Assembly (NCBI GenBank): GCA_007376445.1
Contig: VMGF01000002.1
Location: 103,928 to 167,927, forward strand
Origin: Parcubacteria group bacterium Gr01-1014_3
GTDB lineage: Bacteria; Patescibacteriota; Minisyncoccia; UBA6257; WO2-44-18
Direction: 5' to 3'
Length of the DNA: 64,000 bases
The position numbers were made by a program, and so were the translations under genes. Of the stretch, positions 5,768-63,787 are shown piece after piece. Each line of letters begins with the position of its first letter. The stretch's first letter is position 1. The notes beneath the pieces were generated by a model that was given only the letters and a program-made list of their open reading frames with translations, did not search any database and was not told where the DNA came from.

Positions 5768-5793
5768 ATCCCTGTCGCCGCTACAAATGAAAT
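5768..5793 (+). repeat. direct repeat copy 2 (atccctgtcgccgctacAaatgaaat), overlapping the murD start
   Basis: att-like duplication of tRNA 3' end. Confidence 0.6.
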
Positions 5794-7049
5794 CGCACAT
5801 GAAAATAGCAATTCTTGGCTTTGGACGTGAGGGAAAGGCGGTTTTCAAGTTTCTCTCCGCCCGAGGCGGATCCTCCTTCGGAGGAAAAAAAAATAAATAT
5901 AAAAAGGCAACTATAGAAGTTCTCGATCAGAAACATGGCCAGGATTATCTGAAAGATCTTGATACTTTCGATCTGGTCTTCCGCTCCCCTGGCGTGCCGT
6001 ATAATCGTCCGGAAATTCAACGAGCGATAAAAAATGGAGTTAAGTTCTCCAGCGTCACCAAATTATTTTTTGAACTCTGCCCGGCGAAAGTTATCGGAAT
6101 TACCGGAACAAAAGGAAAAGGCACGACTGCTACCCTGCTCTATAAGATCCTTAAAGCTTCTGGCGCGGACGTTCATCTCGCCGGAAATATCGGAAAACCA
6201 GCCATCGATATCCTCCCAAAACTGCGCAACTCATCGACTGTTATCTTGGAGCTTTCCAGCTTCCAGCTTCAGGACCTCGGCCAGTCCCCGCCAATTTCTA
6301 TTGTCACAGAAACCTTTGAAGACCACATGGACGCGCATAAGAGCGTCAAAGAATATCTGGACGCCAAAACTAATATCGCCCGACATCAAAAAAAGGACGA
6401 TGTGATTTTCTACTTCGCCGATAGCGACTGGGCTAAAAAGATCGCCCTCAAAAGTCCGGCGAAAAAGATCGCGGTCTATGGCGGATCATTCGGCTTAAAA
6501 AAGAACTTCGTGATGGCGGCAACCGTCGCGGCTTATCTTGGTGTAGACAGAAAATTCATCGTGCGGACTCTCAAAAACTTCCCAGGCATTAAACATCGGA
6601 TGGAATTAGTTGCGGAAAATTGTGGAGTCCGGTTTTATAACGATTCCGCCAGCACTAATCCTAGGACAACCGCGGCCGCGATCTTAGAATTTACTAATAC
6701 CCTAAACGCTAAACCCTATCCCCTAGTTCTAATCGCCGGAGGCAAAGACAAGAATCTGGACTACGCGCCGCTCGCTACCACCTTAGCCAATACATCTCAC
6801 GTAAAAACCGTGATCCTTCTAGGAGAAAACAAAAATAAGGTTTTCGAAAAATTGAAAATTGAAAATTTAAAATTGAAAATTGAACTTGCCGATGATCTTG
6901 AGATCGCGGTAAAAAACGCCTATCAATCAGCTAAAATATACGGTGGTGCTGTGCTTTTTTCGCCTGGAGCGGCAAGTTTCGATATGTTCAAAGACTATCA
7001 AGACCGCGGCGAGCAGTTTAAAGAGATTGTCAAAAAGCTTAAAAAGTAA
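5787..7049 (+). CDS. murD: UDP-N-acetylmuramoylalanine--D-glutamate ligase
   Basis: Mur ligase P-loop GITGTKGKGTT, NDSASTNP, C-terminal Mur ligase domain; start may be the ATG at 5802; low-complexity N-terminal insert (SARGGSSFGGKKNKYKK). Confidence 0.85.
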   Translation: MKSHMKIAILGFGREGKAVFKFLSARGGSSFGGKKNKYKKATIEVLDQKHGQDYLKDLDTFDLVFRSPGVPYNRPEIQRAIKNGVKFSSVTKLFFELCPAKVIGITGTKGKGTTATLLYKILKASGADVHLAGNIGKPAIDILPKLRNSSTVILELSSFQLQDLGQSPPISIVTETFEDHMDAHKSVKEYLDAKTNIARHQKKDDVIFYFADSDWAKKIALKSPAKKIAVYGGSFGLKKNFVMAATVAAYLGVDRKFIVRTLKNFPGIKHRMELVAENCGVRFYNDSASTNPRTTAAAILEFTNTLNAKPYPLVLIAGGKDKNLDYAPLATTLANTSHVKTVILLGENKNKVFEKLKIENLKLKIELADDLEIAVKNAYQSAKIYGGAVLFSPGAASFDMFKDYQDRGEQFKEIVKKLKK

Positions 7050-7065
7050 TAGAATAGAAGCACTT

Positions 7066-7143
7066 GCGGTGGTGGTGTAGCCTGGTTAACATGCCTCCCT
7101 GTCACGGAGGAGATCGCCGGTTCAAATCCGGTCCACCGCGCCA
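7066..7143 (+). tRNA. tRNA-Asp (GTC) with encoded CCA
   Basis: acceptor GCGGTGG/CCACCGC, anticodon loop CTGTCAC, T arm GCCGG-TTCAAAT-CCGGT, 3' GCCA. Confidence 0.85.
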
Positions 7144-7166
7144 AATCAGCCTTATTTTACAGGGTA

Positions 7167-7194
7167 TTGACAAATCCTGTGGGTTTGCTATAAT
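7167..7194 (+). promoter_or_regulatory. consensus sigma70 promoter TTGACA-16-TATAAT
   Basis: perfect hexamers; no ORF downstream before a strong terminator. Confidence 0.6.
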
Positions 7195-7200
7195 TACACC

Positions 7201-7351
7201 AGTAATAAATATTGAGTTGGGCCTTAAAATCTAGCCAGCCAGTCTTCCTTATAGGAGCGCTAGACAACTCCCGGTTACCGAGTGCGGTTCATGACCCCGG
7301 TGCCGGCCTGACGACGAAATCCCATAGCCTGTGAAGCTATGGGATTTTTTT
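7201..7351 (+). ncRNA. candidate small ncRNA (~150 nt), identity unknown
   Basis: consensus promoter upstream, internal hairpins (ggag..ctcc, cgg-tta-ccg), strong intrinsic terminator, no ORF on this strand. Confidence 0.45.
7318..7351 (+). terminator. rho-independent terminator (aaatcccatagc-ctgtga-gctatgggattttttt)
   Basis: 12-bp stem + T7; may also serve the convergent 7355..7900 gene. Confidence 0.7.
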
Positions 7352-7354
7352 AAT

Positions 7355-7900
7355 CTAATCAATCAATCCAAACTCTTGGAGGGCTTTTTTGTATATTTTC
7401 AAAACTTCAATGGCTTCGGCGTGAGCGAGGCTAAACTCCGGATCCTTGCTAACTTTGCTCCGGACCGCGTGAGCTTGCATTACCTGATCGTAGTTTGAGA
7501 TCAGCTCCGTGCTTAATGCGTTAAAACGCTCATCCACGGACGGCTGATTATAACCGCTGGACCGCAATACATCGTCGAGTAGTTTATCCGCTTCCAAAAT
7601 CGCCATTTTCCATTCGGTCTGATCCGGCTCTTTAGACCGATGAACGATCTTATGCCAAGCCTTCATATGCCGCCTCTTACCCACATCGCCATAGCCGGTT
7701 TTATCCATATAAAACTCCACCTTCTTTTTCGCGAAGCCAGTATTGATGATCATATAAACTATTCCCCAGAAAAGCAGGCCGGAAATCACGATAGAAATCA
7801 CCCAAAACCACGGCAAAAGCGGGCCGAAGAAATCGATCATCCATTCCCGGAATTTCAAAGTTGCCTCTACAGCCTGATTAATCGTTTGTTGTCCTTTCAT
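7355..7900 (-). CDS. membrane-anchored hypothetical protein
   Basis: two N-terminal TM helices, soluble C-terminal domain; no motif recognised. Confidence 0.45.
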   Translation of the reverse strand: MKGQQTINQAVEATLKFREWMIDFFGPLLPWFWVISIVISGLLFWGIVYMIINTGFAKKKVEFYMDKTGYGDVGKRRHMKAWHKIVHRSKEPDQTEWKMAILEADKLLDDVLRSSGYNQPSVDERFNALSTELISNYDQVMQAHAVRSKVSKDPEFSLAHAEAIEVLKIYKKALQEFGLID

Positions 7901-7902
7901 AG

Positions 7903-7995
7903 TTACGAATATCGAATTAATACGAACAAGCGAATAAACGAATTACGAATTAACCATTCGATTATTCGTATATTCGTTCAGATTCGTTATTCGCC
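7903..7995. promoter_or_regulatory. array of ACGAAT / ATTCGT hexamer repeats in both orientations upstream of the 7355..7900 gene
   Basis: at least 10 copies of (A)CGAAT(A/T) or its complement in 90 bp. Confidence 0.35.
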
Positions 7996-8001
7996 ACACC
8001 T

Positions 8002-9450
8002 TTATATCTTATTTATTCTCTCATAATATTGCCCAATTCCCAAAATGTCGGCTTCGCGCCAATGCTTGCCGATCAGCTGAAAACCAATCGGTAATTTTCC
8101 TTCAACTTTCGCGGGAATTGATATTGCCGGCACCCCAGCCATATTCACAGGGATAGTAAAAATGTCTGAAAGATACATAGAAAGCGGGTCGCTGGTCTTC
8201 TCGCCAATCTTAAAAGCTGGAGTCGGAGAAACCGGGGTTAAAATCACGTCTACTTCCTTAAAGGCATTATCAAAATCTTGTCGCATCAGGCGGCGGACTT
8301 TTTGCGCCTTGGCGTAGTAGGCATCGTAATATCCGGAAGACAAAACGAAAGTTCCGAGAATCAAACGACGCTGAACCTCCGCGCCAAACCCATTACTCTT
8401 ATTTAATTTGTAGAGATCGATCAAATTCTTAGCATTTTTTCCGTGTTCACGAGTGCCATACCGGATGCCGTCGTAACGAGCCAGGTTGGAGCTGACCTCG
8501 GCCGGCATAATGATGTAGTAGCAAGAGATCGCGTGTTTCGTGTGCGGCAAGGTAATTTCTTTAAATTTGATTCCGAGAGTTTTCAAGCTGGCGATCACCT
8601 CATCCATCGCCTTCCGGACTTCCGGAGAAAGGCCGTCGATAAAATATTCGCTCGGAAGACCGATGGTCATATTTTTAATATCCTCGAGTTTTGGATTCAA
8701 AAGTTCGTCGCCGTAATTTACACGAACATTCGTGGAATCGTGCCGGTCTTTGGCCGCTAGGGCTTTAAAAAGAATCGCCGCGTCTTCCACGGTCTTAGTA
8801 ATCGGACCGATCTGATCTAAGCTCGAAGCCATAGCAATCGCGCCATGACGGGATACCGCGCCATAGGTCGGCTTCAACCCAACGACTCCGCAAAGACTGG
8901 CAGGCTGACGAATAGAACCGCCCGTGTCCGTACCGAGCGCGGCCAGGGCCATATTGTCGGCAACAGCAGCAGCCGAACCGCCCGAAGAACCTCCGGGAAC
9001 TCTTTCGAGATCATGCGGATTTTTCGTGATTTTAAACGCGGAATTTTCGGTGGAAGAACCCATCGCGAACTCATCCATATTAGTTTTGCCAAGAAAAACC
9101 GCTCCAGCTTTTTTCAGCTCCACAATTACGGCGGCGTCATAAGAGGCCGTGTAGTTTTCCAGCATCTTCGAGGCGGCGGTCGCCGGTAAACCTTTTATGA
9201 GAATATTGTCCTTAATCGCCATCGGCACTCCAGCCAACGCGCCCACCTCCTCTCCCCTCGCGATCGCCAAATCCGCCTGCTCGGCCTGCTGGTAGGCCTG
9301 ATCCTTGGCGGTACTCAAAAACGCTCCGATCTCCGGATCGCGAACTTCGATGTATTTTAAATAAGCCTGCGCGATCTCAAGCGCGGTAAATTCTTTTTTA
9401 ACTAACCCCTCATGAAAACTTTTAATTGTCAGGTTGTGTAGGCTGTGCAT
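8002..9450 (-). CDS. gatA: Asp-tRNA(Asn)/Glu-tRNA(Gln) amidotransferase subunit A
   Basis: amidase signature GKTNMDEFAMGSSTENSAF, GGSSGGSAAAVA; true start probably MHSLHN (ATG 9448-9450), since the track's 5' extension covers the palindromic intergenic region. Confidence 0.9.
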   Translation of the reverse strand: MHSLHNLTIKSFHEGLVKKEFTALEIAQAYLKYIEVRDPEIGAFLSTAKDQAYQQAEQADLAIARGEEVGALAGVPMAIKDNILIKGLPATAASKMLENYTASYDAAVIVELKKAGAVFLGKTNMDEFAMGSSTENSAFKITKNPHDLERVPGGSSGGSAAAVADNMALAALGTDTGGSIRQPASLCGVVGLKPTYGAVSRHGAIAMASSLDQIGPITKTVEDAAILFKALAAKDRHDSTNVRVNYGDELLNPKLEDIKNMTIGLPSEYFIDGLSPEVRKAMDEVIASLKTLGIKFKEITLPHTKHAISCYYIIMPAEVSSNLARYDGIRYGTREHGKNAKNLIDLYKLNKSNGFGAEVQRRLILGTFVLSSGYYDAYYAKAQKVRRLMRQDFDNAFKEVDVILTPVSPTPAFKIGEKTSDPLSMYLSDIFTIPVNMAGVPAISIPAKVEGKLPIGFQLIGKHWREADILGIGQYYERINKI

Positions 9451-62757: not shown

Positions 62758-62830
62758 GGGGTCGTAACTCAACTGGCAGAGTAGCGGTTTTTTAAGCCGA
62801 AGGTTGTGGGTTCAAGTCCCACCGGCCCCA
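62758..62830 (+). tRNA. tRNA-Lys (TTT)
   Basis: GGGGTCG acceptor, D arm ACTC/GAGT, anticodon loop TTTTTAA, T arm GTGGG-TTCAAGT-CCCAC; promoter-like TTGCAT-16-TAAGAT upstream. Confidence 0.8.
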
Positions 62831-63119
62831 TGCCCTTTTACAGGAGGTCAGCCACCTCCTTATATATAAGCTCTCGGCGCGATGCTGGCTATTTTGAGTC
62901 AGCGATAGGAGCGACGACGAAGATGCGCAGGTGCGCTTCGAAGAGGAGCGACAAGCTCGATGACTCAAAATAGCCGCATCCCAAAGGGTTGTGACTAAAA
63001 TGAATTATCGCTACGTCGCTCGTCCTTGAAAGAGACCTCTCTATCTGCATCCTCGCTCCTGGCGCTAATTCATTTGTAGTTCACAACGCGCCAGAGATTC
63101 ATATACAAGGAGGTGGCTA
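62831..63119 (+). other. ~290 nt highly structured non-coding leader (hairpin 62842-62860; 15-bp inverted repeat 62888-62902/62961-62975 enclosing a nested hairpin)
   Basis: long perfect complementarities seen directly; ends at a strong RBS AAGGAGG. Confidence 0.3.
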
Positions 63120-63467: not shown

Positions 63468-63665
63468 TTAAGCGCGAGACACGTTGGTGGCGCTTGGGCC
63501 CTTTTCTCCTTCGGCGATCTCGAAGGTGACGGTGTCACCCTGCTTGAGTTCGTCAAACGTTACACCCTTTAATTCTTTAGAGTGAAAGAAGAGGTCCTTA
63601 GCTTCACCTTCACGGGAGATGAATCCAAATCCACGATCCGTGAGAGTTTTAATAGTTCCTTTCAT
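63468..63665 (-). CDS. cspA: cold-shock protein (CspA family)
   Basis: RGFGFI RNP-1 and FFHSKEL RNP-2 like motifs, 65 aa. Confidence 0.85.
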   Translation of the reverse strand: MKGTIKTLTDRGFGFISREGEAKDLFFHSKELKGVTFDELKQGDTVTFEIAEGEKGPSATNVSRA

Positions 63666-63787
63666 TTGTTTGCTATTTATTATTTGTAATGCGCCTAGAA
63701 AGTCGACTGCATCTCTTGAGCTACACTATGGGTAGAGTATAGCATATGGTTAAAAACTTGTCAATAGGGGCTATTTATGGCGCAGTT

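Follow-up and report, generated by a model that had tools for sequence, protein, structure and literature searches.

A candidate small RNA gene with a consensus sigma-70 promoter next to tRNA-Asp in a Parcubacteria genome

Gene order and signals at the murD-tRNA-Asp locus

The window analyzed here is the whole of a 64-kb stretch of DNA from Parcubacteria group bacterium Gr01-1014_3, a member of the Candidate Phyla Radiation (the 181-aa protein encoded beside the small RNA unit described below is 100% identical to a protein of this bacterium). Four tRNAs are recognized in it by Rfam 15 at the gathering threshold, and the genes around one of them follow the order murD (+), tRNA-Asp (+), a promoter-RNA-terminator unit (+), the gene for the 181-aa protein (-), and gatA/gatC (-). 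The features of the locus are as follows:

5787-7049, plus strand: murD, upstream of tRNA-Asp
7027-7055, plus strand: TTGTCA-17-TAGAAT, a 10/12 promoter-like site for tRNA-Asp within the 3'-terminal part of murD
7066-7143, plus strand: tRNA-Asp(GTC), CCA encoded, without a strong terminator of its own before 7316
7142-7197, plus strand: conserved promoter block, identical at 50/56 positions to the nearest relative, L081
7167-7194, plus strand: sigma-70 promoter TTGACA-16-TGcTATAAT, 12/12 match to the consensus (-35 TTGACA at 7167-7172; 16-nt spacer; -10 TATAAT at 7189-7194)
7201-7351, plus strand: predicted non-coding transcript of ~150 nt, with the start placed from promoter geometry and the 3' end in the T-run
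7201-7215, plus strand: A/U-rich 5' tail (AGUAAUAAAUAUUGA), single-stranded according to the fold prediction
7216-7312, plus strand: body, with a predicted closing helix (7216-7223/7305-7312) around two hairpin arms
7316-7351, plus strand: intrinsic terminator (13-bp stem, 7-nt loop, T7, -18.3 kcal/mol)
7355-7900, minus strand: convergent gene encoding 181 aa, product lacking any Pfam domain; 3 nt separate its stop codon from the T-run
Beyond the 181-aa gene, minus strand: gatA and gatC

The promoter has no equal in the window. On both strands of the 64 kb, a 12/12 sigma-70 match occurs only at 7167-7194, where ~0.04 would be expected from composition, and only three sites in all, this one included, reach at least 11/12. 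The second lies ~11 nt upstream of tRNA-Met, and the third (TTGACA-17-TATACT, 63736-63764, minus strand) drives a cspA-like gene, so that consensus promoters in this sequence mark highly expressed genes. The third promoter is followed by a leader of ~65 nt and by the coding sequence of a 65-aa cold-shock-domain-like protein (63468-63665, minus strand). The first-pass annotation of this DNA had described a perfect TTGACA-16-TATAAT located 57 bp downstream of tRNA-Asp; the hexamers and the spacer are exactly as described, but the distance is not, as the -35 element begins 24 nt past the end of the tRNA (7143) and it is the predicted start, A7201/G7202, that lies ~57 nt past it. An extended -10 TG at 7186-7187 is absent from the earlier description. 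The promoter block further includes an A/T-rich stretch upstream (7150-7159) and, overlapping the -35 element, a weak hairpin (7156-7183) with three G.U pairs and a poor T-tail.

At the other end of the unit, the terminator that had been annotated with a 12-bp stem and T7 is present, with a stem (7316-7328/7336-7348) of 13 pairs, 12 of which form a perfect inverted repeat, and with the T7 at 7345-7351. It ends 3 nt short of the stop codon of the convergent gene, and when the hairpin is read on the minus strand it is followed only by UUUCG; the terminator therefore has plus-strand orientation. From 7143 to 7316 nothing but the weak hairpin at 7156-7183 intervenes, and tRNA-Asp is contiguous with the unit. 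Since the tRNA has no strong terminator, the one at 7351 must presumably also end read-through from the tRNA-Asp promoter, and it would in addition stop antisense transcription into the gene for the 181-aa protein.

No integrase was found near the unit. The genome is compact, with most gaps shorter than 100 nt, and a unit of 200 nt is therefore unlikely to be idle DNA. Other non-coding gaps of the window hold inverted repeats. The 101-nt gap from gatA to the start of the 181-aa gene is filled by an imperfect inverted repeat (7906-7993; arms of 38 nt built from CGAAT/ATTCG units), possibly an array of operators or a structure of the promoter region; the nearest relative has 31 nt of unrelated sequence there. 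A second, perfect inverted repeat of 15 nt (GGCTATTTTGAGTCA / TGACTCAAAATAGCC, spaced by ~59 nt) is found at 62887-62975, where ~250 nt of non-coding DNA adjoin tRNA-Lys (62758-62830); Rfam at its gathering threshold does not match it.

Coding capacity, fold, and family searches

The statement of the first-pass annotation that the strand carries no ORF is strictly wrong, as a 40-aa ORF with a TTG start (7212-7334, plus strand), found mechanically, covers most of the transcript; the ORF is, however, without a homologue. No protein among 5.8 billion shares even three 5-residue words with it, and it shows no similarity to a 31-aa ORF at the same place in L081. The peptide has neither the hydrophobic nor the Cys-rich character typical of small toxins and zinc ribbons, and the ORFs of both strands (36-40 aa) are not hydrophobic. 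A type I toxin-antitoxin module was considered and rejected for want of a small hydrophobic toxin ORF on either strand in this size range. Shine-Dalgarno-like motifs precede only ~11 of the 64 longest-ORF starts in the window, and translation initiation in this genome seems to be largely independent of them; the missing motif at the 40-aa ORF is therefore uninformative either way, and arguments from ribosome binding sites are of limited use here. The unit has no credible coding capacity.

The fold predicted for the transcript (both minimum free energy and centroid) consists of an unpaired 5' tail, a branched body, and the terminator hairpin at the 3' end. With the terminator included, the transcript has a fold z-score of -2.85; the body without it has a z-score of -0.11, and 81 of 200 shuffled sequences fold equally well, so that all of the unusual stability sits in the terminator. 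The internal hairpins noted earlier are present (GGAG 7254-7257 with CTCC 7268-7271; CGGTTACCG at 7272-7280), but with a body z-score of -0.11 their stability does not exceed chance. The string GGTGCCGG occurs at 7299-7306, and the 'SRP-like' segment GGUGCCGG gave no lead.

A search of the whole 64-kb window with Rfam 15 at the gathering threshold assigned no family to 7201-7351 and found only the four tRNAs. With permissive filters and E <= 10, the region 7100-7420 returned just terminator-driven noise far under threshold (NsiR1 at 21.7 bits versus 39, the trpB motif, and rmf), and the same searches gave nothing for SRP RNA, 6S RNA, RNase P, tmRNA, ribozymes, or riboswitches. The earlier failure to place the RNA in the SRP, 6S, or another family by eye is thus upheld by the Rfam scan. 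Homology searches were equally negative: in 160 loci (~1.1 Mb, fetched by MurD synteny from genome and metagenome collections), neither nhmmer nor blastn found a copy of the RNA; a single-sequence covariance model of the body matched only itself in the window and 98 loci (~650 kb); and a search for closer relatives by way of MurD and the 181-aa protein yielded no other genome with a window-type RNA. With no homologue of the body found, covariation analysis is impossible. Neither the promoter nor the transcribed region of the window or of L081 was matched by blastn in phage GenBank or by exact-pattern scans of IMG/VR viral contigs, in which the window body was represented by two exact 21-22-nt patterns. 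In duplex prediction against the 64 translation-start regions of the window, the strongest pairing had the same energy as the average for shuffled sRNAs. The body shows no sign of a conserved structured RNA gene.

Several specific candidates were tried and rejected. A hammerhead-like CUGACGA...GAAA occurs at 7307-7319, but no stem II lies between the core elements and there is no Rfam hit. An origin of the body from a tRNA is not indicated, as its similarity to tRNA-Asp is not significant whichever way it is oriented, and the 10-nt CAAATCCNGT repeat shared by the T-loop and the promoter spacer is within chance. A riboswitch or cis-regulatory leader would require a gene downstream on the same strand; there is none, and the terminator abuts the convergent stop codon.

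Promoter, body, and junction among relatives

The closest relative is L081, whose region is identical in L161-L164, from four assemblies. It shares with the window 76% identity in MurD, 90% in the 181-aa protein, and 100% in tRNA-Asp. The 4-fold degenerate sites of the two 181-aa genes are 54% identical, and neutral sites are therefore heavily diverged. Against this background, the block 7142-7197 differs at only 6 of 56 nt (89% identical; P about 1.5e-8 at the neutral rate), which indicates that the promoter is under purifying selection. The hexamers, whose conservation in relatives the first-pass annotation had treated as decisive for its reading, are identical in L081, as are the spacer length and the TGn motif.

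The similarity to L081 ends a few bases past the -10 element and resumes at TTTTAAT just before the convergent stop codon. Between these points L081 carries an unrelated body of ~215 nt, or ~245 nt when its terminator, which differs from that of the window unit, is counted. When the two bodies were aligned locally, 633 of 1000 shuffles scored as well in one test, and 810/1000 (sense) and 132/1000 (reverse complement) did so in a second. In simulations, 92% of copies diverging at the neutral rate without indels were still detectable, so that the body has been replaced or has changed far faster than neutral substitution alone would allow. The L081 RNA folds with a z-score of -5.6 (0 of 200 shuffles as good), and it has neither an Rfam match (SRP and 6S at E <= 10 included) nor a match in phage records. 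The L081 unit lies at 1391-1668 (the same in L161-L164), with the cargo at 1424-1640, and the RNA contains the internal repeats GCUCUAUCU and UAGAGGGA, each present twice, and five CUAG sites. As the promoter of L081 would drive a stable and separately terminated RNA, the slot appears to express non-coding RNAs in both lineages. Judged from these alignments, selection is demonstrated for the promoter alone and not for the RNA.

Across the 160 loci, the order tRNA-Met, murD, tRNA-Asp is widely conserved in the clade, and what follows tRNA-Asp is not constant. In L165 (181-aa protein 88% identical), tRNA-Asp is followed by a canonical terminator and a Cys-rich ORF of ~60 aa (about 930-1160); zinc-ribbon-like ORFs resembling this one are also seen in L010 and L025. 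An inverted tRNA-Asp abuts murD in L166 (84%; 651-729), a co-directional gene fills the slot in L167 (81%), and in L168 (MurD 76%) a free-standing LAGLIDADG endonuclease ORF (1662-2240) is located between murD and a different tRNA-Asp. The Wolfebacteria loci L014 and L019 have tRNA-Asp and then directly the homologue of the 181-aa protein. A small ribbon-helix-helix-like ORF was also observed in L003 (5390-5600). Relatives without the unit carry a canonical terminator directly after tRNA-Asp; L081 is the only locus where a promoter of at least 10/12 leads into a non-coding unit no more than 250 nt from tRNA-Asp, and the unit is absent by inspection from L170 and L171 (MurD 60-61%). The promoter-plus-RNA unit is confined to the clade of the window and L081; ancestrally, tRNA-Asp seems to have adjoined the convergent gene. 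The junction is rearranged in nearly all of the near relatives, and because the slot is filled differently across relatives, it is a rearrangement hot spot.

Duplicated tRNA ends occupy the slot at other loci. At least nine of them contain a 14-30-nt exact copy of the 3' end of their own tRNA-Asp, located 80-270 nt downstream (L002 6195-6385; L004 5338-5525; L016 2696-2862; L021 5387-5597; L020, minus strand, about 8295-8462; and L006/L084, L082, L083, and L093). Each consists of an intact tRNA-Asp, a terminator hairpin, a GC-rich segment of 80-270 nt, and a second terminator, with the GC-rich segment starting as the reverse complement of the tRNA T-arm and ending in the copy of the tRNA-Asp 3' end. 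Common motifs (GGGGTCGGGG, AACCGAGGG, GCAGTGAGAT) and compensatory stem changes are found among L002, L004, L016, L020, and L021, and the segments have no Rfam match; they may be att-site remnants, mini integrative elements, or an undescribed structured RNA. The unit itself was considered as the remnant of a tRNA-targeting integrative element and this was rejected, as neither the window nor L081 has a duplicate of the tRNA-Asp 3' end in the nearest 700 nt.

Interpretation and comparison with known systems

The reading that we tentatively prefer, while holding it at somewhat less than even confidence, is that the unit is a real gene for a small non-coding RNA, lineage-specific, strongly expressed, and without a described family. 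RNA polymerase with the housekeeping sigma factor would start at ~7201 from the extended -10 promoter, transcribe ~150 nt, and stop at the terminator at 7316-7351. We infer the transcript ends, the high expression, and any function of the RNA from sequence features. The RNA is probably young and lineage-specific, and its most likely role would be that of a trans-acting regulator that operates through the unpaired A/U-rich 5' tail or the loops. The earlier suggestion of a small RNA gene is thus borne out as far as its own promoter, a non-coding body, and an intrinsic terminator are concerned, but not with respect to conservation or stability of the body.

The main alternative, which we consider rather unlikely, is that the promoter or the act of transcription is what is selected and that the body is filler without a sequence-specific function: an outward-facing promoter at the edge of a hot spot would transcribe whatever DNA lands there, and the terminator would protect the convergent gene and end the tRNA-Asp transcripts. 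The promoter is conserved while the body is unalignable and unstructured, the junction differs in every lineage that has an 81-100% identical 181-aa protein, the tRNA-Asp 3'-end duplicates in at least nine related loci are a signature of site-specific integration, and each cargo comes with a terminator of its own that directly precedes the convergent stop codon. However, it is hard to see why purifying selection would maintain a perfect promoter for a useless product, and neither an att-like duplication around the window unit nor an integrase nearby was seen. The folds of the two cargos point in opposite directions, as that of L081 is far too structured for random DNA (z = -5.6) and argues against filler there, whereas the random-like fold in the window argues for filler here.

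An improbable explanation is that the region is the 3' external transcribed spacer of tRNA-Asp, with the RNA mainly processed from the tRNA precursor and the internal promoter serving to boost its level; it may then act like known sRNAs derived from tRNA spacers. Transcripts of tRNA-Asp should indeed reach 7351, with just the weak hairpin at 7156-7183 before 7316, and the relatives that lack the unit terminate right after the tRNA. A perfect and conserved promoter inside the spacer nevertheless argues for independent initiation, and the body is not conserved. Another proposal to which we give little credence is a fixed expression slot in the clade, in which unrelated non-coding RNA cassettes with their own terminators are exchanged between lineages. 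The locus would in that case be hypervariable in its RNA, with diversifying or turnover selection acting on it, for instance in phage defense or in the interaction of an episymbiont with its host.

It is highly improbable that the RNA is a divergent 6S or SRP RNA missed by the Rfam models in this phylum. The stable-RNA type of promoter and the size range fit, and 6S RNA is notoriously poorly conserved in sequence; against this, a permissively filtered search at E <= 10 gave no match in the window or in L081, the fold prediction shows no rod with a central bubble and no pairing of the 5' end with the 3' end, and there is no GNRA-capped element resembling helix 8. Moreover, housekeeping RNAs would align between genomes this close, and these two do not, differing ~1.6-fold in total length. 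Least credible of all is an mRNA for the 40-aa protein, which the extent of the ORF along the transcript and the rarity of Shine-Dalgarno motifs (11/64 starts) would allow but which its TTG start, the lack of a homologue or of likeness to the L081 ORF, and the character of the peptide make scarcely tenable.

To our knowledge, almost nothing is known about the regulatory RNAs of Candidate Phyla Radiation bacteria, whose ~1-Mb genomes leave little space for idle DNA. An orphan RNA with a strong promoter under selection gives the Parcubacteria a concrete candidate for a first lineage-specific sRNA, and the combination of a conserved promoter with a swapped cargo is an unusual evolutionary pattern. 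If the RNA should be filler, the locus would still document a rearrangement hot spot linked to tRNA-Asp.

Among known systems, the small SRP RNA (4.5S; RF00169) is similar to the window RNA in size, and the GUGCCGG string of the latter is also present in E. coli 4.5S RNA, but the window RNA lacks a match to the SRP models (RF00169, or RF01854 for the large form) and a GGAA/GNRA-capped helix 8 with its conserved loops. The stable-RNA-like promoter and the size of 150-200 nt are shared with 6S RNA (RF00013), from which the window RNA differs in having no model match, no rod fold, and no conservation in near relatives. The sRNAs of tRNA 3' external transcribed spacers (e.g., 3'ETS-leuZ of E. coli) likewise follow a tRNA without a strong intervening terminator and end at the terminator of the operon; unlike the known sRNAs of this type, the window RNA has a perfect promoter of its own, is much longer, and has no known sponge targets. 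By analogy only, the locus also resembles an integron, in which a fixed promoter serves exchangeable promoterless cassettes: at a recombination hot spot, one conserved promoter precedes cargos that are unrelated between the two lineages, but the slot has no integrase and no attI/attC-like sites, and its cargo is single and non-coding. The young sRNA genes of enterobacteria are intergenic, have a free-standing promoter and a Rho-independent terminator, and turn over rapidly. The window unit departs from them in that no chaperone context or target was found, and from typical sRNA families, in which seed and terminator persist with the promoter, in that the whole body and terminator are swapped in L081. 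Like the young genes, it combines a sigma-70 promoter, a non-coding transcript of ~150 nt, and an intrinsic terminator with a position beside a tRNA in a variable intergenic region, a narrow range, and an unpaired 5' end as a possible seed. Unclassifiable by family, the unit yet belongs to the general kind of the free-standing bacterial sRNA gene.
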